Under the pieces are notes generated by a model. That model saw nothing but the letters and a program-made list of their open reading frames with translations. It did no database searches and was not told the DNA's origin. DNA of 64,000 bases, from the IMG/VR virus record IMGVR_UViG_3300045988_174170, one strand, 5' to 3'. The position numbers were made by a program, and so were the translations under genes. How positions within the stretch are numbered: position 1 is the first letter of the stretch; the number at the start of each line of letters is the position of its first letter. Below are positions 29,897-54,525 of the stretch, piece after piece. The DNA is from a virus.

Positions 29897-30379
29897 ATGA
29901 GCAAGAATCAGAGCCCCGAAATGGACACCGGCGACAAAATCACGTTCGCTTTCCTATTCGGATTCCCCCTTCTACTTCTCATCATTTTCATTGCCGGTTT
30001 GCTGATTACCCGTGAATCTATCCCGAACTATTGCCACATCAACCAACAAACCACCGACACGCCCATCGAGACGCGAAACTACAAGCCGTCTAGGTCATGG
30101 AGCACCCACGAATGGGGTTGGTGCTTCAACCCCACCAAAGCCACCTATGAGGGGTGCTGGAAGGACGAAGACCACTACGAACCGGCAACCTTTGAATGGC
30201 GCTACGTAGGAACCGAAGACTGGGCTAAGGAAACCCGCGAACCCGCCGGAACCGACAATGAGCACCCGTACCGCCGTGTCACCGAATACGACGTACAGAT
30301 TTGCGACGGACGCTCACAGCACGCGGACAAGAACGGGCAGATTGAATCCCACCAGGTATCCGTAAGCTACTACATCTAA
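29897..30379 (+). CDS. membrane-anchored protein, paralog family F (Cys/Trp motif)
   Basis: 160 aa with an N-terminal TM. Motif 'FEWRY...W......HPY.R.T.YD.Q.CD.R.QHA..NG.I..H' shared with 42209, 48296 and 54079. Confidence 0.7.
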   Translation: MSKNQSPEMDTGDKITFAFLFGFPLLLLIIFIAGLLITRESIPNYCHINQQTTDTPIETRNYKPSRSWSTHEWGWCFNPTKATYEGCWKDEDHYEPATFEWRYVGTEDWAKETREPAGTDNEHPYRRVTEYDVQICDGRSQHADKNGQIESHQVSVSYYI

Positions 30380-30449
30380 CTACCCATCTACCCCCCGGTT
30401 GCTAACCGTGACCTGGGGGGGTAACCCCTAACCCGAAAGGAACCCCATA

Positions 30450-30884
30450 ATGTTCATTCCACAGAAGAAATACGAATACACCCGCACCTGGGAAGAAGTA
30501 CACGCCTTCCAAAGCGCCCTATGGAGTACGGAGAAGTCCAAGGCTGAACGCATGGCGGAATACCGCGCCGCCGGTGGTAAGATTCTTCTCGCATGGGAAT
30601 TTGATGCCGATTTCAGCCTCATTATCGAAGATAGCGATACCAATGTTAATGATGGTTACGAATCACAGTACAGCTACAAGCTAAACCTAATGGTGCCATA
30701 CCTTGAGGGTGAAGACCCCTGCACCGGATTCATGACCCTAGAGGGCAACACTGAATATTTCGACTGGGAGCACTACACCTTCAAGGCATCTATGCCCGGC
30801 AACCCCTTCGAGGAAGCCGAAAACGAACTACTAGCAAAGTATGGACTCACCAAAGAAGATGTAGATTACTACCAGAGCTTCTAA
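30450..30884 (+). CDS. hypothetical protein
   Basis: 144 aa, GAAAGGAA RBS. Confidence 0.65.
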   Translation: MFIPQKKYEYTRTWEEVHAFQSALWSTEKSKAERMAEYRAAGGKILLAWEFDADFSLIIEDSDTNVNDGYESQYSYKLNLMVPYLEGEDPCTGFMTLEGNTEYFDWEHYTFKASMPGNPFEEAENELLAKYGLTKEDVDYYQSF

Positions 30885-30918
30885 ACTAAACCACCAACAG
30901 AAAGGGGCTTACCCGCCC

Positions 30919-31590
30919 ATGCAACGAAATATTGACTGGCTAACTAATGTACTAGACCATGACATTAAAGAGCTCAAGGAAACGCTAGAAACCATACTAG
31001 CCCTTCGCGCCGAGGAAGAAAGCTACCATGTTGTGACTAATCAGCACGCCGCCGGTAAGCGTGAAGAACAGGGCGCACTTTTGGAGCGCGTCAAGAATCT
31101 AGCTGAGTACACCCATAAGGTATGTGTACGCCGCAATGAAGTATGTGCCGCCGAAATTGCGAGGGTGACTCATAATGTGACTAGTGAGCCGTCTATCGCG
31201 GGCGTGGAGTGGGTGCCTGTCAGTTTCCATATGGAGTTTCAGTCACCCGAAGATGCGCACCGCATCTTTCACCTGTGGGCAAATATGCGCACCTTCACCC
31301 TGGAAGATTTTACGCACCCGGAGACTGTGAACACAGCTTCACGTCTCTATTGTGCTACCTTTAAGATTCCGGCTATCAATGACGGATTCACGCAGGCACC
31401 GGAGCGGCTGTTCTACGGCTGGACTACATGCCAGGCATCAGGTGGCTCCCTCGAATGGCTTAATGGCGCTAACGGCGGCATGGTTGATGGTGTGCCATGC
31501 ATTATCTCTGACATTTTCCGTCGCGAAGGTAAAGGAAATGATACCGACATGGTTGTAGATGCGCTAGTTCCTACACACCCCAAATACTAA
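30919..31590 (+). CDS. hypothetical protein
   Basis: 223 aa, GAAAGGGG RBS with 13-nt spacing. Confidence 0.55.
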   Translation: MQRNIDWLTNVLDHDIKELKETLETILALRAEEESYHVVTNQHAAGKREEQGALLERVKNLAEYTHKVCVRRNEVCAAEIARVTHNVTSEPSIAGVEWVPVSFHMEFQSPEDAHRIFHLWANMRTFTLEDFTHPETVNTASRLYCATFKIPAINDGFTQAPERLFYGWTTCQASGGSLEWLNGANGGMVDGVPCIISDIFRREGKGNDTDMVVDALVPTHPKY

Positions 31591-31613
31591 GGGAATATAC
31601 CCAATAACCCCTA

Positions 31614-31668
31614 TGTGAGCTATTTCATATGATTCTGGCTTGCATAGGGGTTATTGGTGTGTCATAAT
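31614..31668 (+). promoter_or_regulatory. cassette promoter C10
   Basis: TGTGAgctattTCAtA, TTGCAT, TGtCATAAT. Confidence 0.6.
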
Positions 31669-31731
31669 GGTTATATACAGAAGGGGTAACCCTTGAAGTT
31701 AGTTCCATTATTTACCGAAAGGGGCTTTATT

Positions 31732-32040
31732 ATGATTCAGGAACTTCTGGCAAAGTCAGGGGAGCTTGTTCGGTGTACCGAAAAGCTGGATAAGCTTGCA
31801 GGTGTTGCCAATGGTTTTGCGGGTGCCATGCGTTTCATTGGTGACATGGAGCGCTCTAGTGAAGCCCGGAATCTCTATAAGGAAATTTGCGCTAAACGTA
31901 ATCATTGCAAGGCTCTTACTGCTTGGTACTATTCTTCCGATGTGCGTATGCGCAAAATTGAAGACCTGGATATTCGGGCTATCGAAGAAACTATAGAAGA
32001 GTATCGAAGCCAGCTAACCGCCCTTATCGAGGGAAAGTAG
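31732..32040 (+). CDS. hypothetical protein
   Basis: Track 31693 (TTG inside the leader). The ATG at 31732 follows GAAAGGGG. Confidence 0.65.
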   Translation: MIQELLAKSGELVRCTEKLDKLAGVANGFAGAMRFIGDMERSSEARNLYKEICAKRNHCKALTAWYYSSDVRMRKIEDLDIRAIEETIEEYRSQLTALIEGK

Positions 32041-32056
32041 CATACTCTCAATTCAG

Positions 32057-32111
32057 TGTGACTAGGTTCACATGAATCTGGCTTGCATACCCGGCTAGGG
32101 TGTGCCATAAT
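32057..32111 (+). promoter_or_regulatory. cassette promoter C11
   Basis: Perfect TGTGActaggtTCACA, TTGCAT, TGcCATAAT. Confidence 0.6.
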
Positions 32112-32172
32112 AGAAGTATAGCAAGGGAAAACCCTTAAAGCTACTTCCACTATCTACCGAAAGGCGCTAATC

Positions 32173-32538
32173 ATGGCTAACATTATGAACCCCTTCAACC
32201 GTAAGGTAATCCTCGAAGACGTGAACATTGGCGACTCACTCAAGTTTGTGTACGTCGGTGATAATGGTGAGCTTGTCAAGCACGACGACTATATTGCCGC
32301 CTACGATTCGTTTGCCGGTGCGCGCCTTGAAAACTGTGAAGGTAAGCTTATGGGTTACCTCAAGGTTGCCGAGTTCACTACCGAATGTGAAGAGTGCATG
32401 AGTGAAGATGACGAAGTTCACGCAATGGTCTGTGATGGTAACTACGTAATCGACGGTATGCGCTACATTGACGCTAAGGGGCGCGATTGGGGTCAGGCAT
32501 TTAACCTGCACGTATCCAGCAAGGTAACCTGTCTCTAA
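32173..32538 (+). CDS. hypothetical Cys-rich small protein
   Basis: 121 aa with CEGK...CEEC...C. Cassette leader. Confidence 0.7.
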   Translation: MANIMNPFNRKVILEDVNIGDSLKFVYVGDNGELVKHDDYIAAYDSFAGARLENCEGKLMGYLKVAEFTTECEECMSEDDEVHAMVCDGNYVIDGMRYIDAKGRDWGQAFNLHVSSKVTCL

Positions 32539-32635
32539 GTCCACAGCCTCTGCCCTATCCCCTAGAGTAGCTTCTAGGGGGTAGGGGTAACCCCACACAA
32601 CTACCCCCTATTCCTGGAAGGAACCTAGACCTATT

Positions 32636-33826
32636 ATGCGACCTATTGACTTTGCAAACCTGAACCCCGGCGACATTCTCATTGCTGACACCTTCGACTC
32701 TGAGGTTATGTTTTTTGACTTGTACTATCAGTACCGTTACCGCCTGTTTGTTGTAGAATCTTGCAACAAGGTAGATAATGCCTTTATCGTGTCGGTAGGT
32801 GGCCGTGGGTACCGTAACGTTGTTACCAAGCATGACGACGAATATGTTATTACCAGTATGCTGAATGGAAACTCTGTATTCGTCGCTAACGGTGCTATCT
32901 ACCACTACACTGCCGAGGAAGCTGAAGCCGCTAACCTGTATGAGCGCGCTGAGGCGCAGGAAGACTTGCGTGACTTTGTGTGCCGGAGTGGTGGTCGCAA
33001 TGCCCCTAAGAGCCTTGAAGAGGTGTTTGATAACCTGTATGCTCAGCATGTCCCGAATAATGACCATGCACTAACTAGCGTTGTAAACAATGAGACGGCG
33101 CGCGCTATCATGGGTGAAGTTGTTCGCGGCGGTATCAATATTGCCCGTGACCTTCTGGAGGAAGACCTCAAGAAGATTGATGAGCTTATCCAGGAAGCAA
33201 AGGAAGCCCGTAACAAGATTAACCAGCTCGCTACCGAGAATACTGTTGCCCTCCAGCCGAACAGTGAAGTCGCTATCTTCGTTAATCCGACCATTCCCAA
33301 GCCGTTCGATAACCTGCTCATCACTGGAACCGCAATCACTGAAGACGGTACCGAATATCTTGTTAGCCGCATGGATGAGAGCCGCGCATACGTGACCGAC
33401 CCGGCAACCGGTAAGGAAGTAGGATACCTGGCTGTAGATTCTCATGACCACCCCGACCTGCACTTCAACAATGGCGATAAGGTAAGTTTTTACGAGTCCG
33501 CACGCGCATACCCCGCCGTATCCATTGAGGACATTGAAGCCCGTAAGGAACTTACCGAACAGGTAAAGGTTATCTTTACCGCCTTTTGGGAGCCGTTGAA
33601 GAAGGCTAAGAAGGAAATGAATTACCCTGTTGATACCTGGGGTCACCCTATGCGTCAGATTGATAGTGGGTGGGATGAGCGTGGTAATAACACTATCTCT
33701 AACATTCTTCCCCTGGCAACCCACCGTGTGTCACAGTTGAAGACGGCGCGCCGCGAACTTATCAAGCAGGCGAACGGATACATCGCTCAGCTTGAAGAGT
33801 ACTACGAGCTGGCACATGGCGAGTAA
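32636..33826 (+). CDS. hypothetical protein with N-terminal 'NPGDILIA' motif and central coiled coil
   Basis: 396 aa, GGAAGGAA RBS. Confidence 0.6.
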   Translation: MRPIDFANLNPGDILIADTFDSEVMFFDLYYQYRYRLFVVESCNKVDNAFIVSVGGRGYRNVVTKHDDEYVITSMLNGNSVFVANGAIYHYTAEEAEAANLYERAEAQEDLRDFVCRSGGRNAPKSLEEVFDNLYAQHVPNNDHALTSVVNNETARAIMGEVVRGGINIARDLLEEDLKKIDELIQEAKEARNKINQLATENTVALQPNSEVAIFVNPTIPKPFDNLLITGTAITEDGTEYLVSRMDESRAYVTDPATGKEVGYLAVDSHDHPDLHFNNGDKVSFYESARAYPAVSIEDIEARKELTEQVKVIFTAFWEPLKKAKKEMNYPVDTWGHPMRQIDSGWDERGNNTISNILPLATHRVSQLKTARRELIKQANGYIAQLEEYYELAHGE

Positions 33827-33921
33827 CTAGCCCCCCTATTCATGTACCCCCTGGAAGAGTCCCTAGAGCCTTCTAGGGGGTATAGGTGGGTAGCGCCCCT
33901 GGCTAGACCCTCAATATTAAA

Positions 33922-33976
33922 TGTGACCTATTTCACGCCATTTCAGTTTGCACACCTCTAAAAGGTGTGTCATAAT
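33922..33976 (+). promoter_or_regulatory. cassette promoter C12
   Basis: TGTGAcctattTCACg, TTGCAC, TGtCATAAT. Confidence 0.55.
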
Positions 33977-34056
33977 AGAAGTGTAGCGAGGAAGTGATAG
34001 ATAACTTCCATAAGGCACTAAGCCCGCTACGATAGATTCCCTGAAAGGAATACCTA

Positions 34057-34434
34057 ATGTTTACTGCTATTTCCCGTGGCGACCACCGACTCAACGACCG
34101 CCTGATTGACCTTCGACAGGTTGAAGACGTGAAGCGTCTCGAAGTCATTGCCTGCGGCGACATGGCAACCACCGGTAAGTTTGCAAAGATGCTGGAGCCT
34201 AAAATCCGCATTGAAGACATTGATACCGAAAGTGAAGAAGACGCAGTACGAGCTGAACTTACCATCTTCGACCCTGAGACTAATGCCTACTATGACTTTA
34301 TCGCCGTTGAAGACATTGACAGCTCTATCGGTCAGTTCCTTATCAACGGGGAATACGGCGAATTTACTGTACTTCTTATGGTGGTAAATGAAACCGACGA
34401 GGATGCCGTCATCTACCTCACCACCACCAACTAG
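34057..34434 (+). CDS. hypothetical acidic protein
   Basis: 125 aa, GAAAGGAA RBS. Confidence 0.7.
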   Translation: MFTAISRGDHRLNDRLIDLRQVEDVKRLEVIACGDMATTGKFAKMLEPKIRIEDIDTESEEDAVRAELTIFDPETNAYYDFIAVEDIDSSIGQFLINGEYGEFTVLLMVVNETDEDAVIYLTTTN

Positions 34435-34552
34435 GCATAACCGCTAAGGTACCCCTAAGCTTGAGGGGGGGGGTGCATAATCCCACCCCCTCAAGCCCCC
34501 TAACCAACACCCCATTACCCCTAATATCTATTACACGAAGGAAATAACACAC

Positions 34553-35083
34553 ATGGCTAACAGCACCCTGGCACACCAGACCTTTTTCGCAAACCGCTAC
34601 GCCGACACTGAAGCCGGTATGCGTGACCTCCCCGCCGGTGAATACTACATTGAGCTTATTGATGAAGTAGTAGACGCTAAGACCCTAGAGGAACAGCTCT
34701 CGACCATTGGAGACACTACCGTAGTTCGAGTACCGTTCGAGGTCTTTAAGTGCATGAAGCCCCTGTACAGCCTGTACAACGACATGTACGACATTCACCG
34801 CGCACACAAGCACCTGAACCTCAACAGCGAACAGGAAATTCCCCTGCGCGTATATGGTCACCTCAAGCAGGAATACCTCTACGAGTACTCTCTGGCTCTC
34901 ATGACCGACATTGACGGCTGGATGGACATTACCCGCTTCACTATCCCCCGTCCCACCAGTGACGAGCAGGAGGCGGCAATGGAAAAGGTTGCCGGTAAGT
35001 ACCGCTACATGCGCCTGGGTGCCATTGTAGATAATCGTGAAACCATTGACTTCTACTTCACCAACGAGCCCGCCGGTGCCTAG
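34553..35083 (+). CDS. hypothetical protein
   Basis: 176 aa, GAAGGAAA RBS, followed by terminator CCCTAGC-aatccac-GCTAGGG. Confidence 0.6.
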   Translation: MANSTLAHQTFFANRYADTEAGMRDLPAGEYYIELIDEVVDAKTLEEQLSTIGDTTVVRVPFEVFKCMKPLYSLYNDMYDIHRAHKHLNLNSEQEIPLRVYGHLKQEYLYEYSLALMTDIDGWMDITRFTIPRPTSDEQEAAMEKVAGKYRYMRLGAIVDNRETIDFYFTNEPAGA

Positions 35084-35321
35084 TTAGCCCACCTATAAGT
35101 AATAGGCATTATATAGATTTCTCACCCAACCCCAAACCCCCTAGCAATCCACAGCTAGGGGGTTTATCCATGCCCACTAAAATAACCAGCCACACCACAC
35201 TACAATCCACCATGTGCTACACTAGAAACACAAAAGGCAACCCAACACGCCAAACCCGGCAACACATAAGGGGAAGCCCTATAACCCCACATATACCCCT
35301 ACAAGAAAGGCATATAAAGCA

Positions 35322-36692
35322 TTGGGTAACGAACCAGTCACAAAAGACCCACCAAAGTACACCGACACCATGACCGAAAAGGTCACCACGCCACCACTCG
35401 ACCCGGTAACCAACAGGCGAAACCGTGAAAACGTCGTAACCGTCATTACTAGCATCGTCTTCATTGCTTCACTCGCTGGGGGTATCACCTACAGGGCGCT
35501 AAACCCCGAACTGACAGCCAATAGCTTCTATACACTGACGCTACTAAACGCTATCGGCATAATCTCAGGTGCCGCCGCCCTTGTCGGACTCACCCTCAAC
35601 TTTAAAACAAGTAAAGAGCTTAATATTTGCCAGTGGGAAATTTCCCCCTACCTGTACCCAAAAAACCTCCGTTCCGTCCTACTAGGAAGCCAGGAAGAGA
35701 TTACATTCAAGGTAAAGGCAACACAGCCCACCGATAGGAACCCCCTAGCCCCCTGGATTTCAAACCAAGACGGCAACGTAGTTCTAGACGTACAGAACGA
35801 CAAGCACGGTGAAGGCACCCTAGTTATTCACCCCGCCGACATCTACGAAGTCACATTTGACCTACTCGAAGGCAACGAACCGCAACTAGTTGGATACGCC
35901 TCAGAATGGCGATACGACACCCGTAGCGTTTGCTGGCATCTACACCTACCCGCAAGCTACCGCAAGCACTACAGCGCCGCTTTCGGTGAAAGGGCAAAGG
36001 GTAAAGAGCTATTCAACAGCAAGATAACCCTACAGGATAAGGCCCTATCCTACAAGGGAGACATTTACCCCTATACGCTAGGTAAGCCCAAGGATAGGCT
36101 ATCGCACAGGCTAAGCCCTAAAGCATTTGGCGGCTACGGGGCATTGCTTCTTGTAGCTGGAGTATTTGGCGGCACATCCCTAACGCTTGCTATAGACGCT
36201 CTCGCAAACCTGCGTTTTGGTGACGCATTTTTCCCTCTCCTACTTGCTGTAGGCTGTGTTTTCATGGCTGTAACGTTTGTATCCTTTACCTTAGGGGAAG
36301 CTTGGATTAATAGGGTAACCCCCCTCAAGGATTATTCTGAGATGTGGGACTGGTCATCTATGGGTCTTCCTAAGAATTTCAAGGAAGAACTAAAGTACCG
36401 TTCCCGCTCGATTGTCCTGCCGCTTATCCCATTCGGTAAAGACGGTAGCAAGTATGCAGACTGGATTCAGAGCCGCCCCACTCAAGATGCGGACGGTAAG
36501 AGCAAGAGCGTGGTAGGTGTGTATCTACCGCGCGGCGAGTATGGTCTTATTGAGATTCCCGATAAGACGAAAATCAAGTACGAACACCTAAAGTATCCAA
36601 CAGATGCCCCCTGGGTTTCCTTGGAAGTCAGCCCCGAGATTGAAGAGCCATACAGTGCTACTATCCACCTACCGAGTAGTGTTCTAGAATAG
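35322..36692 (+). CDS. multi-pass membrane protein (456 aa)
   Basis: TTG start 11 nt after GAAAGG (alternative ATG at 35370). At least 4 TM segments. Followed by terminator 36703..36755. Confidence 0.5.
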   Translation: MGNEPVTKDPPKYTDTMTEKVTTPPLDPVTNRRNRENVVTVITSIVFIASLAGGITYRALNPELTANSFYTLTLLNAIGIISGAAALVGLTLNFKTSKELNICQWEISPYLYPKNLRSVLLGSQEEITFKVKATQPTDRNPLAPWISNQDGNVVLDVQNDKHGEGTLVIHPADIYEVTFDLLEGNEPQLVGYASEWRYDTRSVCWHLHLPASYRKHYSAAFGERAKGKELFNSKITLQDKALSYKGDIYPYTLGKPKDRLSHRLSPKAFGGYGALLLVAGVFGGTSLTLAIDALANLRFGDAFFPLLLAVGCVFMAVTFVSFTLGEAWINRVTPLKDYSEMWDWSSMGLPKNFKEELKYRSRSIVLPLIPFGKDGSKYADWIQSRPTQDADGKSKSVVGVYLPRGEYGLIEIPDKTKIKYEHLKYPTDAPWVSLEVSPEIEEPYSATIHLPSSVLE

Positions 36693-36761
36693 GCATTGTG
36701 GTAACCTGAAATACCCTAGATAGTTTGTGAATCATCAAGTTATCTAGGGTATTTTTGTGTA

Positions 36762-36817
36762 TGTGACCTATTTCATATTATTTTGACTTGCAACCCCATG
36801 CTCAGGTGTGCCATAAT
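36762..36817 (+). promoter_or_regulatory. cassette promoter C13
   Basis: TGTGAcctattTCAtA, TTGCAA, 18-nt spacer, TGcCATAAT. Confidence 0.55.
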
Positions 36818-36884
36818 AGAAGTACAGCAAGGGGAGAACCCCTAAAGCTACTTCTACCATCTACCTATTGAAAGGGTTTCAATT

Positions 36885-37202
36885 ATGGCGCTGTTCGAGT
36901 TCGAGCTCAAGCACCACGAAGATGTTATCGACGCAATCAATGAAGGCATTAAGATTCGCGTTGGTCAGATTCACCAGAACAGCAACGGCTATCTCACTGT
37001 GAACGTATGGTGTGGCGAAGACCGCGACTGCGCCGAGGTGTGGGTAGATGGTGACTATGACGAAGAGAACGCCCTTATCAAGCTCATCAAGAATAATGAT
37101 TATTATGACCTGGATATTAACTGGGAAGAGGGCTACCTGACTGTCGAATTTGACGAGTACGAAGAAGAAGACGACTGGGGCGACGAAGATGACGAGTGGT
37201 AA
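36885..37202 (+). CDS. hypothetical protein, paralog family B with acidic tail
   Basis: 105 aa, paralog of 20678..20923. Confidence 0.75.
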   Translation: MALFEFELKHHEDVIDAINEGIKIRVGQIHQNSNGYLTVNVWCGEDRDCAEVWVDGDYDEENALIKLIKNNDYYDLDINWEEGYLTVEFDEYEEEDDWGDEDDEW

Positions 37203-37339
37203 GTCACTCAACTAGCCCCTAGCCTATCTACCGTTTACCCCACCCTTATACTCAGGGGTGGGGTAAACGGAAACCAAAGCACCAATGACTTAACCAACAC
37301 TAACTAACTAATTTTCCACCAAGAAAGGGAATACCTACC

Positions 37340-39977: not shown

Positions 39978-40003
39978 CCCCCTTCCTGCACCCCTAACCC
40001 CTT

Positions 40004-40058
40004 TGTGACTCAATTCACACGTCTTCGAGTTGCAAAGGGGTTAGGGGTGTGTCATAAT
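40004..40058 (+). promoter_or_regulatory. cassette promoter C15
   Basis: Perfect TGTGActcaatTCACA, TTGCAA, TGtCATAAT. Confidence 0.6.
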
Positions 40059-40127
40059 AGTTATATAAGCGGTAGAGAAAAATTCTAGCGCACAGTCCAC
40101 TACCTACCTATTGAAAGGTTGTTTATC

Positions 40128-42167: not shown

Positions 42168-42208
42168 CTATACCCCAGACCCTATAGAAGAGTATGGAGC
42201 CGCAACAC

Positions 42209-42640
42209 ATGCGTAAGAAACTAGCCGCACTCACGGCACTACCTGTGCTACTACTGACCGGGTGCGATAGTCCTAACCTTTGTGAAGTGAACATCAATGA
42301 GACGCGGGTTAATGTTGAGGTTCGCAACGTCTCGTCTAGCTACACGTGGTACAGTACCGAGTACTACACCTGCCCCGACGGTAAAGGCGTATGCAGTCGT
42401 CAAGACCCGCACTGGGAAGACGGCGGCCTTGATTGGCGTGAAGCAGGTAAGTATGATAACCCTGATGAGGGGTGGACTCACTGGGTGGGTGACGCTAAGC
42501 GGGTAGATAACCTAGACCAACCCTATAAGCTGGACGTTGAGAGTGACGACATGATTTGTGACGGTCGCGAGAACTATAAGGCGCGTGACGGCGAAATCGT
42601 AGCTCACAATTCATACTCCAAGTTCTATGTACGTAGCTAA
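42209..42640 (+). CDS. lipoprotein, paralog family F
   Basis: Track 42194. MRKKLAALTALPVLLLTGC is a classic lipobox signal. Conserved 'ICDGRENYKARDGEIVAHN' motif. Confidence 0.7.
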   Translation: MRKKLAALTALPVLLLTGCDSPNLCEVNINETRVNVEVRNVSSSYTWYSTEYYTCPDGKGVCSRQDPHWEDGGLDWREAGKYDNPDEGWTHWVGDAKRVDNLDQPYKLDVESDDMICDGRENYKARDGEIVAHNSYSKFYVRS

Positions 42641-42748
42641 CGCCACACAGTAACCCCCTCTAAGGGAACGAAGGCTACAGTCACCGCTGAAAGCTTCCAC
42701 CCCTAGAGGGGGTACCCCCTAACCCTACTAATAGAAGGAATTTAACCT

Positions 42749-46288: not shown

Positions 46289-47341
46289 ATGCTGAAAAAG
46301 ACCCTAGAATCACTCAAGGATAAGCTTAATCATAAGGAAGCATACAGTGCCGATAGTGACCGTAAGTATGAAATCCTGCATGGTGACTATAAAGATATTG
46401 GTACGACCCGCTACTATCGCATTAAGGCACTACGTCATATTGACCGTCCCCTTAATCTACCCTCTGTGGAAGCGGGCGACCTGGGTGGGTACGTATCCCG
46501 TGAAGATTGTCTAAGTCATGAGGGGACATGCTGGGTTGGTGACATGGCGCTAGTGTCCGGTGAAGTGTCAGGTGACGCGCAGGTTAGTGGTCAAGCAACC
46601 GTGCAGTTCCCCGCAGTGGTTACTGGGCTATCCTATGTATCGGACTATGCGCGTGTACTGCATGGCGCATTTGTGGAAGATTCAAAGATTATTAACACTG
46701 CAACCGTGACCGGCAATGCAACCTACATAACTAACTCCATGATAGCTAAACTGAGGGGCGACGTACCCGAAAATGAGTCACCAATTCGGGAAACAATCAT
46801 AAAGCGTTCTGTCATTATGGATAACGCCCATGTAGCCAATGGTGTACGCATTGAAGATAGTACCGTTAGCGGCTCTGTGTATCTTGCAGGCAATATCTCT
46901 GTGAAAGACCGTTCCATGATTCATGGCGCAATCGCACTAGTAGCAGAATCAGACCCACTTAGTATTGAGAATGTCATACTGGAAGAACCAGTGAACAGCA
47001 ACGGCTCACCCAACGCATTTACGACCGGTTACAGGGATAAGGGGTGGAAGATTACCCCCGATAGCTGTGACATTACCGAACTATCGCACAAGTCACAAGG
47101 TGCCTCAGATGACCTTCAGAAACATATAAGGGACAGTGAAAAGCACCATAGTAACCTTGCGTGGGTAAATCCCGGACAGGGCAAGTTCACTAGGCATTGG
47201 CGTAAATCGTATTATCTCAGGGCTACCCGCTGGAGTACACGAAATCCCAATGATGAGCTACTGGAATACGCGGCAACCAATAGGGTTCTAGGCGTTTACT
47301 ACAGGAAGCCCCTAGAAGACGTTGAAGAATTTGAAGATTAG
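46289..47341 (+). CDS. hypothetical protein with C-terminal beta-helix-like repeats
   Basis: 350 aa. Repetitive V/I-x-G-x-x motifs (VSGEVSGDAQVSGQATV ...), similar in character to the C-terminus of 59154. Confidence 0.6.
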   Translation: MLKKTLESLKDKLNHKEAYSADSDRKYEILHGDYKDIGTTRYYRIKALRHIDRPLNLPSVEAGDLGGYVSREDCLSHEGTCWVGDMALVSGEVSGDAQVSGQATVQFPAVVTGLSYVSDYARVLHGAFVEDSKIINTATVTGNATYITNSMIAKLRGDVPENESPIRETIIKRSVIMDNAHVANGVRIEDSTVSGSVYLAGNISVKDRSMIHGAIALVAESDPLSIENVILEEPVNSNGSPNAFTTGYRDKGWKITPDSCDITELSHKSQGASDDLQKHIRDSEKHHSNLAWVNPGQGKFTRHWRKSYYLRATRWSTRNPNDELLEYAATNRVLGVYYRKPLEDVEEFED

Positions 47342-47433
47342 CACTTAGTGCATTGAACATTAGACCCCCTAAAGGACAAACTTTAGGGGGTCTAATGTTT
47401 TGGGGCATATTGTATAAATCACAGTATTTCGGG

Positions 47434-47462
47434 TTGCGCTACGCATTAGAGTGTGTCATAAT
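47434..47462 (+). promoter_or_regulatory. cassette promoter C18 (upstream palindrome degenerate)
   Basis: TTGCGC, 17-nt spacer, TGtCATAAT. Confidence 0.5.
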
Positions 47463-47531
47463 GGAAGTATATTAAGTAAGCGGGGAACCACCCCGGTACC
47501 CACCCACTGCCCACTGAAAGGAATAGATACC

Positions 47532-47900
47532 ATGTCCTGGGACTTCATGAACGAAGAGTTTAGCCGTGAGCGCCATGTCTTCATCCCCAATACCTACACC
47601 GTCGAGGATATTTTCGCACATATTGAGCGCACCATGAAGAGCGGAAACGTTCAAGAGTACGCCCGAGAGTACACCAACGGGTGGATTGGTGAGCCTATGG
47701 GTAACCAGATTGGTATTATCCACCTTGAGTTTGGCGACAATGAACAGGAGATTGAAGTATACATCTACGAGGATAAGGACTCTAAGAACCGCCTCGCAGT
47801 AGACGGTGATGCCATTCATGAAGATTACCTTGAATGGTCAGATGCAAGCTTCGATACCTTTGAGTCGGTAGTTAATTGCCTCAAGGAACTAGAACGTTAG
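47532..47900 (+). CDS. hypothetical protein, tandem paralog family D
   Basis: Track 47451. M28 follows GAAAGG. About 50% identical by eye to the next gene. Confidence 0.7.
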   Translation: MSWDFMNEEFSRERHVFIPNTYTVEDIFAHIERTMKSGNVQEYAREYTNGWIGEPMGNQIGIIHLEFGDNEQEIEVYIYEDKDSKNRLAVDGDAIHEDYLEWSDASFDTFESVVNCLKELER

Positions 47901-47939
47901 TCACCACCAATAGACCCACTACCGTAAAGGAATGACACC

Positions 47940-48260
47940 ATGACCGAGTTCTTTAGCCGCGAACGACACATCTACCTCCCCGGCACCTACACCGTTGAAG
48001 ATATTTTCAACCACATCGAAGCTAACGAAGACACCCTAGAATACACATCCTGCAACCTTGGTGAACCCGCCGGTGAACAGATTGGAATTATCCACTTTGT
48101 ATTTGGTGACAATGAACAGGACATTGAGGTGTGCATCTATGAATCCAATCACCTCGTAGTAGACGGTGAAACCTTCGGTGAAGACTACACGGATTGGTCG
48201 CCTGCAAGTATCCGTGCCTTTGAGTCGGTAGTAAATTGTCTCTATGAACTTCAGGGCTAA
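47940..48260 (+). CDS. hypothetical protein, tandem paralog family D
   Basis: 106 aa (FSRERH...TYTVEDIF.HIE...GEP.G.QIGIIH..FGDNEQ.IEV.IYE). Confidence 0.7.
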   Translation: MTEFFSRERHIYLPGTYTVEDIFNHIEANEDTLEYTSCNLGEPAGEQIGIIHFVFGDNEQDIEVCIYESNHLVVDGETFGEDYTDWSPASIRAFESVVNCLYELQG

Positions 48261-48295
48261 ACAGTACCAATAGACCTGCTAGGAAAGGAAAGCTA

Positions 48296-48769
48296 ATGAG
48301 TGACGACGAAGAAACCATTGGTGGCATCATTGCTAAGGCGGTAACCGCAATGGTTGTAGGGCTAGGTGTATTCGGCATTATCAGTGCCAACGAAAAGCCT
48401 AATACATGTGTCAGGAACGAAACCAGCCAGGAAGTTCGGGTAGAAATCCGAAACTACAGCCCCGGATACTACGAAAGCGTCCACGAAATGCGCCCGTGCC
48501 TGAACGCTGACGGGTCTATGGGCTCATGCCCCTACGACGGCTCAGAATGGCACAGTGGTAGCTACCAGTGGCGATACGCTGACAAGTACACAGACCCCGA
48601 GGAAGGTTGGACTAACTGGAGTGGTGACCCTGAAAAGTCCAGCACCGGTTACTCTTACTACCTCCACCAAGAAAGCGACACCGCAGTCTGTGATGGACGT
48701 GAACGATTCAAAGACAAGGACGGGCAGGTTATCAAGCATAACGTAAGCGACACGTTCTATATGGCATAA
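48296..48769 (+). CDS. membrane-anchored protein, paralog family F
   Basis: 157 aa with an N-terminal TM. Conserved 'YQWRY ... VCDGRERFKDKDGQVIKHN'. Confidence 0.7.
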   Translation: MSDDEETIGGIIAKAVTAMVVGLGVFGIISANEKPNTCVRNETSQEVRVEIRNYSPGYYESVHEMRPCLNADGSMGSCPYDGSEWHSGSYQWRYADKYTDPEEGWTNWSGDPEKSSTGYSYYLHQESDTAVCDGRERFKDKDGQVIKHNVSDTFYMA

Positions 48770-48893
48770 CCCACCCCCGCAGGCGTGCCCCTAGAGCTAA
48801 CCAGAAAAGCACTAGGGGTACGCCACCAACACCCCAGGGGTGCCGCCACAGAACAACCCCCTACCCCCCTCTAAGAGTAAAGGAACCTAAACC

Positions 48894-49322
48894 ATGAGCA
48901 CACCCCTCATCCCCATCACGAAGGTGCGGTTAGCTACAAAGTCGAACAATGTACTCAAGGCACACCTGAGCAACAATATTATCCGTAAGAACGGCGAAGA
49001 ATACTGCACAATCAAGGACACCCTACGTGGCATTGCCGCAATCGGTGAAGAACACGCCTATGTCGATTACTGGAACGAAAAAACGGCACCCACATTTAGG
49101 ACAGCCGGATTTGGTCTAGTAAACACCAAGTCAAAGACCGTGCCACTCATCATTGCTAGACGCAAGGCACTAAACGCACCCCTAGAAGCATTGAAAGAAC
49201 CCAGCCTCCTGGTAGGTCGTAAGTTCCCCAGTAAAGACGGTTCCTACTACAGTAGGATTACCAGCGCACACATGACAGATAAAGGCAACCTATATGTTGC
49301 CTACGGTCTAGTCCTTCGATAG
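48894..49322 (+). CDS. hypothetical protein, family E1 (first copy of duplicated block)
   Basis: 142 aa, paralog of 50119..50559 (IPI.KV.L..KSN..L......I..). Confidence 0.7.
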   Translation: MSTPLIPITKVRLATKSNNVLKAHLSNNIIRKNGEEYCTIKDTLRGIAAIGEEHAYVDYWNEKTAPTFRTAGFGLVNTKSKTVPLIIARRKALNAPLEALKEPSLLVGRKFPSKDGSYYSRITSAHMTDKGNLYVAYGLVLR

Positions 49323-49339
49323 AGCAGGAAACAAGTACA

Positions 49340-49714
49340 ATGAACACGATACCCCTCGACGCTTTCAGCTTCACCTCACGTGAAGTAAAGGAACTACTGC
49401 AAGTAGCATACAAACCCGTCAATGGCGGATACACCCTGAAAGACATCCTAGCCGCCATAGAAAAGCTAGAGGCTGGTTATGCCAGCACAGATAGCCACAC
49501 CTTCACAGAGGCACTATTCGGTAAGGTTAGCCGTGGAAAGGTTGCCCTCACAGACGACGCAAACCTACTAGGCACCTTTGACGCAAGCGTCATGCTCAAC
49601 CCTGGTAAGCTGGTAGGTGAAAAGGTGACACTAGGAAACAGTATCAAGGGGCGTATCGAGAATTTCCGAATCACCCAATACGGCGGACTACTCCTAGCTA
49701 TCCACGAAGAATAA
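49340..49714 (+). CDS. hypothetical protein, family E2
   Basis: 124 aa, paralog of 50584..50976 (YTL.DIL...E.L). Confidence 0.7.
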   Translation: MNTIPLDAFSFTSREVKELLQVAYKPVNGGYTLKDILAAIEKLEAGYASTDSHTFTEALFGKVSRGKVALTDDANLLGTFDASVMLNPGKLVGEKVTLGNSIKGRIENFRITQYGGLLLAIHEE

Positions 49715-49744
49715 AAACCACCCCTAACGAAAGACTAATTACTC

Positions 49745-50089
49745 ATGGCATTTTTTGGACTCGAAGCAATTACTAAGATTATCGACAGCATCAAGAATAG
49801 TATTCCCTCCTGGGTTAGTTCCCTTGGAAACAAGGACGAAAAGCCTACCACTGATTCTGAGGAACACGACGATAAATCGTGGGGTAGTGAACCGCATTAC
49901 GGTTATCACGATGATGATTACGATGATGACTACGAGGACTATAACCCCGACGGGGAATATTATCACGAAGAATACGACGCTGATGACGGTTCCTATAGTG
50001 TGACTGAAATTGGGCGGCGCGGCGCTTACGATGATGATGACAACTTTAGTTTCGTCATGTTCTCGGAATATGACGACGACGATTATTAG
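49745..50089 (+). CDS. highly acidic Asp/Tyr-rich protein
   Basis: 114 aa with DDDYDDDYEDY and DDDDNFSFVMFSEYDDDDY. GAAAGA RBS. Confidence 0.5.
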   Translation: MAFFGLEAITKIIDSIKNSIPSWVSSLGNKDEKPTTDSEEHDDKSWGSEPHYGYHDDDYDDDYEDYNPDGEYYHEEYDADDGSYSVTEIGRRGAYDDDDNFSFVMFSEYDDDDY

Positions 50090-50118
50090 ACCAAGGAAAA
50101 AGTAAGGAAATAGAAGCC

Positions 50119-50559
50119 GTGATTTCGGGAATCCCTATCCCTGTCAAGAAGGTAAAACTTGACAGTAAGAGCAACCGTGAGCTAAGGGGTTGCATTGGTG
50201 AAGATATTATCTATCATAATAACCAACCGTTCGCCACGCCGCGTAATATCATGAAGGGGCTCGCCCTGCTGGAAGAATCAAGCGCCTATTATTATCGTGG
50301 GGAATTTATCTTCGCCACCGCCGATATTTTTGTTCACGTAGGATTCGGCGCAGTAGACCCCATTAAGAAGACCGCCCCGGTCTTCATGCTTGGCGAAAAG
50401 ATTCTTGATGTCCCGCTGGAAGTCGTAAAGAATCCTGATAAACTAGCGTGTCAGCGGTTTAATTGGGGCGAGCCATGTAATCCAACTTTCAGGGTTTCAG
50501 ACGTTTACGTGTCGGATACTGGAAGCGTTTATGTTGCATACGATGCTAGTGGTTTCTAA
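50119..50559 (+). CDS. hypothetical protein, family E1 (second copy; GTG start)
   Basis: 146 aa, AAGGAAA RBS. Confidence 0.65.
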   Translation: MISGIPIPVKKVKLDSKSNRELRGCIGEDIIYHNNQPFATPRNIMKGLALLEESSAYYYRGEFIFATADIFVHVGFGAVDPIKKTAPVFMLGEKILDVPLEVVKNPDKLACQRFNWGEPCNPTFRVSDVYVSDTGSVYVAYDASGF

Positions 50560-50583
50560 AGCTAAAAGATAGGAAGATAAATC

Positions 50584-50976
50584 ATGGTGTATTTGGCATG
50601 GCGTGGAATTTCAGTAAGTAAGATTCAGGATAAGGAAGTCGCACGGGTACTTGTGGCAACATGTAAGCCCGTCGCTGAAGATAGGTACACCCTAGAGGAT
50701 ATTCTAGAAGTTCTTGAAAATATGGATAAAAAGAATCTTCAGACGTGGGCTGGGTATATGTTTAGCCGAGTACAGTTCGGGTCACCTGTTGATGGTCGAG
50801 TGTTCTTGTACCGCGACGCTTCGCTTATCGGGTCGATTAACGAACGGGGAATGATGAATCAGCGGAACCTCGTTGATGAGATTATTACTAGCAAGAACGG
50901 GGAGCGTGTAGGACAGATTGCGGCTGTTCGTGTAACCCGGCTAGGTGATGTATTCCTAGCTATTAAATATGACTAA
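50584..50976 (+). CDS. hypothetical protein, family E2 (second copy)
   Basis: 130 aa, GGAAGA RBS. Confidence 0.65.
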   Translation: MVYLAWRGISVSKIQDKEVARVLVATCKPVAEDRYTLEDILEVLENMDKKNLQTWAGYMFSRVQFGSPVDGRVFLYRDASLIGSINERGMMNQRNLVDEIITSKNGERVGQIAAVRVTRLGDVFLAIKYD

Positions 50977-51026
50977 CTAGAGTACACGCCTATATCTACC
51001 CCCTATAGGCAGTACTATAACCCCTA

Positions 51027-51081
51027 TGTGAGCTATTTCGCACTATTTTAGCTTGCATAGGGGTTGTTGGTGTGCCATAAT
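51027..51081 (+). promoter_or_regulatory. cassette promoter C19
   Basis: TGTGAgctattTCgCA, TTGCAT, TGcCATAAT. Confidence 0.6.
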
Positions 51082-51159
51082 GATTACACAAGCAAAGGGG
51101 GTATCTCACTAAGGGGTGCCACCTACACACCTTACCCACTTACTTGAAAGGCTGTAACC

Positions 51160-51525
51160 ATGTACCAAACTAATGAATTTGACACATACATCACCGTTCC
51201 CGAGTCTCTTACCCTTCAGGAAGTAAAGGACTTCCTTGCCGCGAATAGGGAGAAGCTTAATATTTCCCCCGCAAACGGTAAGTACAACATTGATAGTGGC
51301 TTGTGCATGTACACGTCCGGCAACGGGTCTATCGACGTTCACCGACTCAAGGGTGAACAGGGGCTTAATATTAGGTTCCATGACCGCTACTCATGGGGCG
51401 GCAAGGTACTCGAAATTGCAAGTTTGGCAATGATTGATGAAGAGTACAACGAGTACTACATTCCCTGTGAAGACTTTAGCGACCTAACCGACGCTCTTCT
51501 CGAAAAGTTTGAGATTACCCCCTAA
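51160..51525 (+). CDS. hypothetical protein
   Basis: 121 aa, cassette leader. Confidence 0.7.
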   Translation: MYQTNEFDTYITVPESLTLQEVKDFLAANREKLNISPANGKYNIDSGLCMYTSGNGSIDVHRLKGEQGLNIRFHDRYSWGGKVLEIASLAMIDEEYNEYYIPCEDFSDLTDALLEKFEITP

Positions 51526-51608
51526 CCCCTTCAACCCCCCTTGCCCCCTGAAGTTGATGAGAAGCTACAGGGGGTAAGGGCACCCAAGCCATAACACCCT
51601 AAACCTTA

Positions 51609-51663
51609 TGTGAGCTATTTCACCTGATTTTAACTTGCGTGGGGGTTAGAGGTGTGCCATAAT
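51609..51663 (+). promoter_or_regulatory. cassette promoter C20
   Basis: TGTGAgctattTCACc, TTGCGT, TGcCATAAT. Confidence 0.6.
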
Positions 51664-51745
51664 AGAAATGTAGCAAAGGGAAAGCCCCTAGCAATGAGTT
51701 CACCATCTAACCTTTGTCGCAAAGACCGAAAGGACAAGCCCACCA

Positions 51746-52087
51746 ATGAGTAACGCTGTTTACAATCTACTGTACGCCCGCCTGCACACCCGCAAGTACA
51801 CTACCGGTAAGATGTCCCCCGAAACTCGCACCAATAGGGACGTTCATAACGCCTCTCTGGAAACCAAATATGAGATGACCACTACTATGAGTATGGTCAA
51901 TCCCGAAACTCAGGAATTGCGTAATGTGACCGTTCCGCGTAGTAAGGTGACCATTATTGGTGACCAGCCTGCGGGCACCCTGCCTTACGTCATTATTGAT
52001 GAACGTGACCGCTACTACGTGCATATTGACTCTACCTTCACCTACGATACCCGCATTGACTTTATCACCCCGGAACTGAACTTCTAA
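51746..52087 (+). CDS. hypothetical protein
   Basis: 113 aa, GAAAGGACAAG RBS. Confidence 0.65.
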   Translation: MSNAVYNLLYARLHTRKYTTGKMSPETRTNRDVHNASLETKYEMTTTMSMVNPETQELRNVTVPRSKVTIIGDQPAGTLPYVIIDERDRYYVHIDSTFTYDTRIDFITPELNF

Positions 52088-52163
52088 TCCGTACCCCCCC
52101 TTTACCCCCGCCCCCAAATGAGGTGGGCGGGGGTTGCCGCCCATCAACTGAAAGGAATCACCC

Positions 52164-52577
52164 ATGACTGAACTGCCCCCGATTGAAAAGCGTGCTATCG
52201 AACCTATCACCTTCTCGCTCAGCTTTAAGCACGTCAATAACATTCCCGTTGAAGAACTTGCAGAGCGCGCAATGGGCAAGGATGTGATTTACATTGATGC
52301 CGTGACCGAAGATAACGAAGACGATGGTCTTCCTATGGTGGACTTCTGCGACGAAGACGGCTACCCCGTAGGTGTTATCGACCCTGAAGACCCACTAGAG
52401 CTCACCCAGGACGTTACCGCCTACATTGAAAGTGTCGATACTCGACAGCTGGACGGTCACGAAGCACTCAAGGAAGGCGAATACCTCGGTACCGACCTCA
52501 GCTTCACTGTAGAAGAAGACGGCTGGGTATCAGTAACTATCAACTCTGTTATTGACCGCAACATTCTTCGATTCTAA
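52164..52577 (+). CDS. hypothetical acidic protein
   Basis: 137 aa, GAAAGGAA RBS. Confidence 0.65.
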   Translation: MTELPPIEKRAIEPITFSLSFKHVNNIPVEELAERAMGKDVIYIDAVTEDNEDDGLPMVDFCDEDGYPVGVIDPEDPLELTQDVTAYIESVDTRQLDGHEALKEGEYLGTDLSFTVEEDGWVSVTINSVIDRNILRF

Positions 52578-52686
52578 AGCGCACCTACCTAACTCCTAAC
52601 CCCCGTATCTATATGGTTGGGGGTTAGGCAGAACGTGGTACCCCACCCTAACCGTCATGACTAACACCCCATAGAAAGGCTCTAAC

Positions 52687-53484
52687 ATGGAACGAGAAGA
52701 CGCTCTAGAGCGCTACGTAAACGCCCTCGTAAGCTACCACCACGACCGGGATACCGGTGCCCGCTGGTACAACGTACTAGGTGCAACCCTGCATATTGAC
52801 CGCAACAACGGCGGATACTATGTCCCCAATGAGGATATTATCGGCTGGGAGGGAGCCGAATACCATATCGACGGGTACACACACGGCGACTACACGTTCG
52901 TAACCAACACCTACTACAAGGTGGAAAACAACCCCCTCAACGCTAAGCTACACGTGCTCGCATACTACGCCCTAGCACACAAGCACAACAAGTACGGCAA
53001 CCCGCACAACATCCCAGACTTTGTACGCACCAGCTTCTTCATTGAACCCGTACATGACTACGCATACTCTGAACTAGCCCACTACGAACATAAGGGGCAG
53101 GGTGTAGCTGAAGCTGTAGCGAACATCAACATCAACACCCTAATCATTTATATTAAAAAGGCGCTCGCTAACTGTGAGCTAGAACATGGTGAGGGCGAGT
53201 TCATTATCGAAGATGATGAGCTGGAAAAGCTGTACAAGCTCACCAACCCGCCCGTAGAAAACGTGCCGCCCGTAACCCAGCAGGAATGGCTCACCGGCGA
53301 CGAGTTGAAGGAACGCTACAACGAAATCAAGGAAGCTACTAGCCACCTTGCAGGACTTCTCGAAACCCTGCCCACCTACGCAACCCTAGACGTACTAACC
53401 TGGGTAGACTGGCAAGAATCCCACACCGTACTAGACATCATCAAGAACGTCATCGGTACCGAAATCGACAGTAAGATGAAGTAG
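52687..53484 (+). CDS. hypothetical protein
   Basis: 265 aa, GAAAGG RBS. Confidence 0.6.
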   Translation: MEREDALERYVNALVSYHHDRDTGARWYNVLGATLHIDRNNGGYYVPNEDIIGWEGAEYHIDGYTHGDYTFVTNTYYKVENNPLNAKLHVLAYYALAHKHNKYGNPHNIPDFVRTSFFIEPVHDYAYSELAHYEHKGQGVAEAVANININTLIIYIKKALANCELEHGEGEFIIEDDELEKLYKLTNPPVENVPPVTQQEWLTGDELKERYNEIKEATSHLAGLLETLPTYATLDVLTWVDWQESHTVLDIIKNVIGTEIDSKMK

Positions 53485-53521
53485 CACACCGTAACCATTA
53501 ACGGAAAGGAAACCAGCCATT

Positions 53522-54091
53522 ATGGAAACCACGGAAACCAACAAGTACCCCCGCCTCAGTGAAGACAATTTCGACTCCGGCGAGTTCTACCAGTTCCTCA
53601 AGAACGCCCTCATCGGTCGCCGCATCATGAAGCTCACCTCTACCTACATTGAGCTTGATAACGGATACACTGTCAAGATTCGCCCTAACTGGGGTTGCGA
53701 CTGTGGCAATGGTAGCGCCGTCATTGAATCAGATTATGTCGGTGAACCCCTAGATGCCGCCGTTATGAATGTTGATTATGAGGAAATCAAAGAGTACGAC
53801 GACCGCTATCACGAAGGCTTCAACATCTTCATCTACATGAAGAACAAGGTCATCAACATTGAAGGCACCGACGCATATGAAGACGGAAACTACTACGGCT
53901 CCGGTTTCTGGGTAAGCGCAGAAATGCCAGTAGACCACGAACGTGAAGTGGAGGAATCTAAGCGCCGCGAGGAAGAAGCCGCTAGGAAGCGTAAGCGGGC
54001 TGGCGGCGCAATGGGGTACATGGCAACCCGCCCCATTATCCGCCCTAAGAAGAAGGTAAAGCCGGGGAATAACCTGAAGTGGAAAATCTAA
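53522..54091 (+). CDS. hypothetical protein with basic C-terminal tail
   Basis: 189 aa. The C-terminus (EEAARKRKRAGG...RPKKKVKPGNNLKWKI) is lysine/arginine rich. Confidence 0.6.
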   Translation: METTETNKYPRLSEDNFDSGEFYQFLKNALIGRRIMKLTSTYIELDNGYTVKIRPNWGCDCGNGSAVIESDYVGEPLDAAVMNVDYEEIKEYDDRYHEGFNIFIYMKNKVINIEGTDAYEDGNYYGSGFWVSAEMPVDHEREVEESKRREEEAARKRKRAGGAMGYMATRPIIRPKKKVKPGNNLKWKI

Positions 54092-54525
54092 TCAGACGAG
54101 CTAAGCAGTTCCTTCTAGCTTTCGGGTTCATCGCCGGTCTAGTCGGTATCGTTGCCGGGGTGAACTATATTACCCCTAAGACGTGCCGGGTCAATGAGCA
54201 TAATGACGATACCCCTATTCAGGTGCAGAACTATGTAGAAGAGTTTAACGGCGAAACGTTACAGCACACGTTCTGCACCGAAGACGGTGCTTATAAGCCG
54301 TGCATGAAGATGATGCCTACCCACCGCGCCGAAAGCTTTGAGTGGCGATACGAGGGAACCTGGAATTGGGTTAAGCATGAAGGTAAGCCCACGGGTAAGA
54401 ACAACAGTCACCCTTACCACAGGTTCACTCACTATGACCAGCAGGTATGTGATAGCCGCGAACAGCACGCAGGAGTGAACGGTAAAATCACCAAGCATGT
54501 TGTAGAAGAATACTTCTTCATCTAA
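54079..54525 (+). CDS. membrane-anchored protein, paralog family F (GTG start overlapping upstream gene by 13 nt)
   Basis: 148 aa with an N-terminal TM. Conserved 'FEWRYEGTWNW ... HPYHRFTHYDQQVCDSREQHAGVNGKITKH'. Terminator 54547..54596. Confidence 0.6.
   Translation: MENLIRRAKQFLLAFGFIAGLVGIVAGVNYITPKTCRVNEHNDDTPIQVQNYVEEFNGETLQHTFCTEDGAYKPCMKMMPTHRAESFEWRYEGTWNWVKHEGKPTGKNNSHPYHRFTHYDQQVCDSREQHAGVNGKITKHVVEEYFFI

Follow-up and report, generated by a model that had tools for sequence, protein, structure and literature searches.

A family of predicted exported, disulfide-bonded proteins encoded in several copies by giant mobile elements

The 64,000-nucleotide stretch analysed here (the window), taken from the IMG/VR virus record IMGVR_UViG_3300045988_174170, encodes four homologous small proteins that very probably belong to a previously undescribed family of exported, disulfide-bonded proteins. 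Each consists of an N-terminal lipid or peptide anchor followed by a compact domain predicted to lie outside the cytoplasm. We favour the reading that this domain is a binding module acting on membrane-proximal targets, possibly in the exclusion of competing elements. This explanation weighs a firm architecture together with a weakly supported function, and we give it as a whole a probability of roughly 0.45.

Four homologous genes in one window

All four genes singled out in an earlier note on this DNA are present on the plus strand, at positions 29897..30379, 42209..42640, 48296..48769 and 54079..54525, and are referred to here by their first positions. Their homology is evident from BLASTP (pairwise E values of 4e-7 to 7e-29 in a database of 670 open reading frames, ORFs) and from a hidden Markov model (HMM) built from the four members, which recovers exactly these four ORFs when searched over the six frames of the window; the next match has E = 0.17. 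Ectodomain identity among the members is 23–40%, and the ectodomains are acidic and 12–14% aromatic. The four-way alignment contains 17 invariant columns, four of which are Cys. In the numbering of 29897, which is used throughout, the invariant core includes P43, C46, N49, N61, C76, C87, W101, R102, W109, Y125, D132, C136, D137, R139, G147 and H152; in the wider family C76/C87 and H152 vary. A longer invariant Cys/Trp/His pattern had been described for these proteins. Its homologous core is real, but the elements HPY, YD.Q and HA occur only in the 29897/54079 pair, and (E/Q)WRY is not invariant, as 42209 reads DWRE.

Member 2 (42209; 143 aa) is a predicted lipoprotein. Its leader reads MRKK-LAALTALPVLL-LTGC and, in a rule-based test, has the make-up of a lipoprotein leader (a positively charged n-region, an h-region and a terminal lipobox of the form [LVI][ASTVI][GAS]C), with a signal peptide at residues 1–18, an L-T-G-C lipobox at nt 42254–42265, a predicted lipidated Cys at residue 19 and a mature ectodomain at nt 42266–42637. 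An in-frame alternative ATG lies at 42194, and the start at 42209 is preferred because it has a GGAG ribosome-binding site (RBS) and an orthologue, P0003, that begins MRKKL. One 42209-type variant (90% cluster) is labelled only 'lipoprotein' in its NCBI source.

The remaining members are without a lipobox and have one N-terminal hydrophobic segment apiece, so that the earlier description of a lipobox LLLTGC in 42209 and of a hydrophobic signal or anchor in the other three is correct. Member 1 (29897; 160 aa) has an acidic N-tail, a hydrophobic segment at about residues 15–38 (nt 29939–30010) and an ectodomain at residues 43–160 (nt 30023–30376); the segment is long, at ~23 residues, and given this length it is a predicted transmembrane (TM) anchor. 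Member 3 (48296; 157 aa) also starts with an acidic N-tail, which is followed by K14 and a hydrophobic segment (nt ~48326–48388) that ends in ISA before NE, with the ectodomain at nt 48395–48766. Member 4 (54079; 148 aa) has a GTG start and a 13-nt overlap with the upstream gene, and carries an RRAK n-region, a hydrophobic segment (nt ~54109–54165), VAG followed by V, and an ectodomain at nt 54175–54522. The segments of members 3 and 4 may be either uncleaved anchors or cleavable Sec signals.

Interchangeable anchors and paired cysteines

We surveyed about 53 homologues, three of which have a truncated or badly aligned N-terminus. A canonical lipobox (LTGC, LTSC, LTAC or LAGC at positions 16–29) is found in 27 and an N-terminal hydrophobic anchor in 23, and there are no full-length members without either. 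P0042 is a recombinant in which the lipobox leader of P0026 sits on the ectodomain of P0031. Likewise, 48296 and the lipoprotein homologue P0005 form a mosaic, with anchors that are 5–20% identical and first ectodomain halves that are 95–100% identical. We strongly infer that lipid and peptide anchors are interchangeable in this family and are exchanged by recombination.

All four Cys are kept in 35 homologues. Joint replacement affects the inner pair (C76/C87) in 14 and the outer pair (C46/C136) in one, and one homologue has lost the inner hairpin by deletion; loss of a lone Cys was never seen. The Cys content of the ectodomains is 3.3%, versus 1.07% in neighbouring proteins. No Dsb or thioredoxin-like CxxC protein was found in the window and related sequence examined. 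In the structural models described below, a hairpin loop lies between C76 and C87, C46 opens strand 1 and C136 follows strand 6. The pattern argues strongly for two disulfides, C46–C136 and C76–C87, that stabilise the domain. Because the four Cys persist or disappear only pair by pair, and because lipobox and TM anchors are swapped on identical ectodomains, the domain is most likely extracytoplasmic, at the outer face of the cytoplasmic membrane. The extracytoplasmic location proposed in the earlier note is thus supported. For the TM-type members, the predicted topology derives from the lipoprotein homologues and the Cys pairing and not from the anchors themselves, as the charges around them are uninformative.

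A confidently modelled domain without a match among known families

AlphaFold2 models were built on family alignments of 33–35 sequences. The model of full-length 29897 has a predicted local distance difference test score (pLDDT) of 88 and consists of a helix at residues 11–41, then seven strands and one short helix. The mature 42209 ectodomain modelled alone reaches a pLDDT of 95 and a predicted template modelling score (pTM) of 0.72, with strands of up to 19 residues. These models strongly suggest that the ectodomain is a 115–125-aa all-beta domain with long antiparallel strands. Foldseek comparison with BFVD gave template modelling scores (TM-scores) of 0.3 or less, and a profile search of PDB found no relative (best E = 1.3). 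A confident model without a structural relative in BFVD or in PDB sequence searches possibly represents a new fold.

Scans of the four proteins against Pfam, PHROGs, NCBIfam and PADLOC returned nothing meaningful, in agreement with the initial impression that they resemble no named family. When 1.84 billion cluster representatives were searched exhaustively with an HMM, 22 clusters were recovered. About six of these consist of long proteins with FN3 or other repeats, which have no more than one hairpin motif in common with the family. A word-indexed search of 5.8 billion proteins recovered 46 clusters, all metagenomic and none with a functional name. Two scans of GTDB species genomes with clade-specific alignments found no relative, and searches of phage and plasmid collections, with the family by tblastn and with the window by megablast, found no match. 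Since there are only 22 clusters among 1.84 billion and no match in GTDB or in the phage and plasmid collections, the family is, as far as these searches reach, restricted to giant (~170–375 kb), largely unannotated mobile elements.

The matches to multi-repeat FN3 proteins and to a tail-fibre-like repeat protein (E values of 6e-9 to 1e-3) come from the family's central hairpin, FEWRYxGTExW, and the feature in common can be written (F/I)(E/Q)WR(Y/E)xGxExW. We dismiss kinship with these long proteins as the sharing of one hairpin motif; profile and fold searches did not recognise in the family the seven-strand, ~90-aa beta sandwich of FN3/Ig-like domains.

The 90%-identity cluster that contains 48296 also holds proteins of 121–126 aa (P0092, P0095, P0096, P0098 and P0102). 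We considered these as anchor-less variants of 48296 and rejected the idea, as they are homologues of the upstream genes 47451 and 47940 (MSWDFMNEEFSRERH...). The mixed cluster looks like a clustering artefact, and cluster sizes in this protein collection need to be read with care.

Ancient paralogues under purifying selection

The ratio of non-synonymous to synonymous substitution rates (dN/dS) was calculated from orthologues on related contigs at 70–92% nucleotide identity. Across orthologue comparisons the ectodomains have values of 0.04–0.09 (0.076–0.086 for 29897, 0.046–0.052 for 42209 and 0.041 for 54079). Values elsewhere are 0.07 for the flotillin gene downstream of 54079, 0.13–0.44 for other neighbours and 0.14–0.48 for the anchors of the family. 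Each paralogue is under strong purifying selection, while the anchors drift.

In a neighbour-joining tree the four window copies fall into four deep clades, each with orthologues on other elements, and by this tree the copies are ancient paralogues. The low ectodomain dN/dS and the retention of four ancient clades contradict the diversifying selection that had been suspected from the divergence of the copies. Two or three family copies are found within 20 kb in related elements. Gene order follows the clade: genes of the 29897 type are followed by the neighbour c7, and those of the 54079 type, which include an orthologue in loci L011 and L012, lie between a DUF7448 gene and the flotillin gene.

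In one sub-lineage the homologue P0044 (L023 8001–8657 and L024 4191–4847) is an in-frame fusion of residues 1–146 of a thymidylate synthase with the C-terminal half of a P0005-type ectodomain, joined at a short W-x-x-G-S stretch common to both parents. Four contigs of independent samples carry it, so the deletion fusion is real; it is probably non-functional.

The carrier element and its probable host

All four exact proteins occur together on one contig of 267,444 bp (ENA ERZ28662559, scaffold_6), and exact window proteins are also found on contigs labelled human oral metagenome (PRJEB6997). The window's own element is ~267 kb in size and of human oral origin; a literature search on the sample accessions yielded nothing. 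Variants are encoded on contigs of 255–313 kb; for more distant members the contigs measure 170–375 kb. IMG/VR lists six carrier contigs as viral, and neither the 64-kb window nor the related 20-kb loci contain capsid, terminase or tail genes. A region that comprises window positions 3732–5288 and the upstream flank (L018 4508–7454 and 11959–13587) encodes a PilT/VirB11-like ATPase (pilT_fam, 1e-62, which is below the family cutoff). Adjoining it are genes for a 408-aa protein that matches the C-terminal ATPase domain of TcpF/VirB4 (7e-21) and for a 563-aa ParA/MinD-like protein, and the opposite strand has a weak MobC-like ORF (6.6e-5). By these matches, an element classed as viral by IMG/VR has transfer traits of a plasmid-like kind in the window and its upstream flank, and the carrier may be a phage, a plasmid or a phage-plasmid.

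Inocles are giant oral extrachromosomal elements with a Streptococcus salivarius-type host. Their GC content is 24–32% (PMC12340149), versus 49% in the window, so we rejected the identification of the carrier as an Inocle. Loci related to the window have GC contents of 43–52%. According to a preprint (bioRxiv 10.1101/2020.07.06.186817), circular contigs of 200–400 kb described as 'jumbo phage' are common in the mouth.

Several features suggest a monoderm, Bacillota-like host with a Gram-positive-type envelope. Related elements encode SLH proteins, a sortase, an AgI/II adhesin, a GH25+SLH enzyme and PspA; where neighbouring genes have phage homologues, these are mostly from phages that infect Gram-positive hosts; the flotillin is FloT-like; the best match of the conjugation ATPase is TcpF-like; and promoters have a TG-extended -10 element.

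Candidate functions

The earlier note had considered a small secreted enzyme that uses conserved Cys, His and Asp residues. This idea is not supported: the Cys behave as two pairs with a structural role, Thr or Arg replaces H152 in about 15 homologues, and the His of HPY is not conserved. No catalytic constellation is conserved in the family, and there is no CxxC motif. The residues that are conserved are of the kinds Trp, Tyr, Arg, Asp, Asn and Glu, and the predicted tether is short, with only ~5 residues between the lipidated Cys and the first strand. Given these three properties, the domain is probably a non-enzymatic binding module and not an enzyme, although the preference is a modest one. 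The short tether would also hold the domain at the membrane surface. Receptor masking at the cell surface, another function proposed earlier, is unlikely with a tether of this length if the host is monoderm or thick-walled.

We hypothesize, with low confidence, that each paralogue, owing to the short tether, would bind a different membrane-proximal target. Candidates are a protein or lipid-linked polymer of the host envelope, and the tip with which an incoming phage or conjugation apparatus penetrates. Such binding would either block the DNA entry of competing elements (superinfection or entry exclusion) or re-tune the host envelope. Superinfection or entry exclusion, or other handling of membrane-proximal envelope machinery, is the simplest functional assignment, but a tentative one, and the odds lean clearly against it as a specific claim.

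Among the closest known systems are exclusion proteins of two kinds. Ltp of Streptococcus phage TP-J34, Llp of T5 and Cor of phi80/N15 are phage superinfection-exclusion lipoproteins. Like the family, they are small, encoded by mobile elements and tethered by lipid outside the cytoplasm; the known ones act by binding and not by catalysis, and Llp has a disulfide, as is predicted here. However, Ltp is helical whereas the family is predicted to be all-beta, the lipid anchor of the family is interchangeable with a TM/Sec anchor, and there are four to five ancient paralogues per element. No PHROG or Pfam match at E ≤ 1 links the family to any exclusion family. The second kind comprises the entry-exclusion proteins of conjugative elements, YddJ of ICEBs1, TrbK of RP4 and TraT/TraS of F, which are also small lipoproteins or membrane proteins of the recipient envelope; those known block the incoming transfer apparatus. 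The element studied here has VirB4/TcpF-like and VirB11/PilT-like ATPases, in keeping with such a comparison. It differs in that there is no homology in Pfam or NCBIfam, the family copies do not adjoin the transfer-like genes, and multiple paralogues are unusual among exclusion genes. In its furthest-reaching form, the proposal would be that a new disulfide-stapled all-beta fold founds a class of exclusion or envelope-reprogramming proteins of giant oral elements, in which four to five ancient paralogues with swapped anchors address distinct targets; we consider this unlikely.

Several points weigh against the picture of an exported binding module used in exclusion. A partner gene common to all paralogues was searched for among the neighbours and none was found. 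Strong purifying selection and deep conservation are atypical of an exclusion factor engaged in an arms race. The flanks of the TM-type anchors have no positive-inside bias, the mean K+R count being 1.70 N-terminal and 1.75 C-terminal to the anchor, and the N-tail of 48296 is acidic. Finally, Cys-rich exported proteins are uncommon in many Bacillota, which is in tension with the inferred monoderm host.

Among the alternatives to exclusion, the one that fares best, though we think it improbable, is a membrane-tethered lectin or carbohydrate-binding module (CBM)-like module that binds lipoteichoic acid, lipid II or a secondary wall polymer and modulates wall synthesis or autolysis during replication of the element. 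The (near-)invariant residues W101, W109, Y125, R102, R139, D132, D137, N49, N61, E58 and E107 would suit glycopolymer binding, as would the aromatic, acidic composition, the all-beta predicted fold and the SLH, GH25 and sortase wall genes of related elements. However, there is no sequence or fold match to a CBM or lectin, and four diverged paralogues for one polymer class have no obvious rationale.

Less probable again is a membrane-tethered inhibitor or immunity protein directed against an extracytoplasmic toxin or enzyme, for instance a bacteriocin, a protease, a lysozyme or another peptidoglycan hydrolase. The models for this would be lipoprotein immunity proteins and the membrane-bound lysozyme inhibitors MliC/PliC, which are extracytoplasmic ~100-aa lipoprotein beta domains with a disulfide, features that they have in common with the predicted family domain.

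Slightly further down we place an accessory subunit of the element's own envelope machine, for conjugation or a pilus or for lysis or its control (compare VirB7/VirB8, spanins and antiholins). A distance of 25–50 kb separates the copies from the ATPase genes, the genes between which they are scattered are unrelated, and four to five paralogues per element would be atypical of such a subunit. Nor does the predicted fold fit: VirB8/TcpC-like proteins combine an N-terminal TM segment with an NTF2-like alpha+beta domain, and the NTF2-like helices of VirB8 are absent here. A PHROG Rz-like match (E = 0.041) is confined to signal-peptide residues 11–40 of 42209 and thus falls outside the domain, the models contain no spanin coiled coil, and there is no adjacent endolysin or holin in the window.

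It is very unlikely that the domain is cytoplasmic, with the hydrophobic N-termini of three copies in an N-out/C-in orientation that points it inward and the Cys serving as metal ligands or free thiols: the uninformative anchor charges, the acidic N-tail of 48296 and the K/R after its hydrophobic segment would fit, but the same domain follows a canonical lipobox in 27 homologues including 42209, anchor-swap recombinants share identical ectodomains, and paired Cys loss at hairpin-closing and sheet-closing positions is unlike a four-Cys metal site.

A repeated promoter cassette heads most transcription units

Much of the window is organised by a repeated promoter cassette. It is highly conserved and combines a TGTGA-N6-TCACA palindrome (a CRP/FNR-type operator shape), TTGCAN and, after a 17-nt spacer, TGn-CATAAT; downstream come a GC stem and a conserved leader with a GAAAGG RBS (CCACTATCTACCTACCGAAAGG-N7-ATG). 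At least 21 copies (about 21–23) of 75–140 nt occur between 20,500 and 63,640, in intergenic positions before most transcription units; one of them is at 24516–24591. The four family genes all sit internal or terminal in cassette-headed units. On the plus strand, the cassette at 29274..29349 (TTGCAA form) heads the unit 29405/29897/30450/30919, that at 39992..40067 heads the unit with 41646 (a 4-TM protein), 42209 and 42749, the core part at 47419..47471 heads the unit 47451/47940/48296/48894 and onward, and that at 51597..51672 heads the unit from 51746 to 53522/54079. Because the same repeated cassette heads each unit, the four members are probably co-expressed with most genes of the region, and the arrangement suggests that one regulator and one sigma factor drive this whole gene class on the element.

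Member 4 is followed by an intrinsic terminator on the plus strand (54547..54597; stem of 14+4 bp, then CUUCUUUUUG), with a folding energy of -37 kcal/mol and z = -5.35; none of 200 shuffles fold as well. It probably separates 54079 from the flotillin gene. Stable, GC-rich hairpins that have no U-tract follow the other members: one at 42650..42715 on the plus strand after member 2 (z = -3.78), and others at 30389–30423 after member 1 (z = -1.71) and at 48782–48824 after member 3 (z = -3.97).

Neighbouring genes and mosaicism

The flotillin encoded at 54746–56314 is FloT-like, with Band_7 and Flot domains, and is itself under strong purifying selection (dN/dS 0.07). In distant elements a PspA/IM30 gene lies near a family copy (L015/L016 8539–9249); flotillin and PspA are both membrane-integrity or membrane-organisation proteins.

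Other paralogue pairs in the window are 9235/10875, 19619/39040, 20678/36885, 47451/47940 and 58750/60579. A two-gene cassette is duplicated in tandem, (48894,49340)/(50119,50584), just downstream of 48296, three LbH/bactofilin-like proteins (phrog_5070) are encoded at 46289, 59154 and 60962, and the 44–52 kb block is missing from the relative L011. As read from these comparisons, the region evolves by duplication and by gain and loss of cassettes. IS605/IS200-type TnpB genes (OrfB_IS605/Cas12f1-like TNB) are inserted at differing sites in many related elements (L001 16246–17517; L013 92–1093; L015 18279–19814; L016 2554–4110; L021 1–133; L023 10176–11744), and these insertions add to their mosaicism.

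At ~12,000–14,560 the window contains ~2 kb almost without G and T on the plus strand, composed of AC-only low-complexity sequence with numerous imperfect tandem repeats (AT skew of +0.82 and GC skew of -0.64 at 12–13 kb). It is followed by an A/G-rich tract (~14,130–14,290) and a G/T-rich tract with three TTTTGGTATAAT boxes, where the sign of the GC skew flips. The whole region may serve as an origin or a terminus, or may be a control region for divergent transcription, and 12448–13341 within it may encode a Pro/Thr-rich protein. A single tRNA gene, tRNA-Glu(UUC), is located at 63794–63867, at the right end of the window.

Significance

Giant elements of 200–400 kb are common in the human mouth and are almost wholly unannotated. 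What we describe is a well-characterised ORFan family rather than a mechanistic discovery, and its candidate new fold merits structure solving. The family offers concrete, testable properties: its members are predicted to be exported, to contain two disulfides, to be held by a lipid or peptide anchor, to be constrained in sequence and to be present in multiple copies. If a role in exclusion or envelope remodelling is true, the family would provide a handle on competition among giant elements and on the membrane targets that they use.

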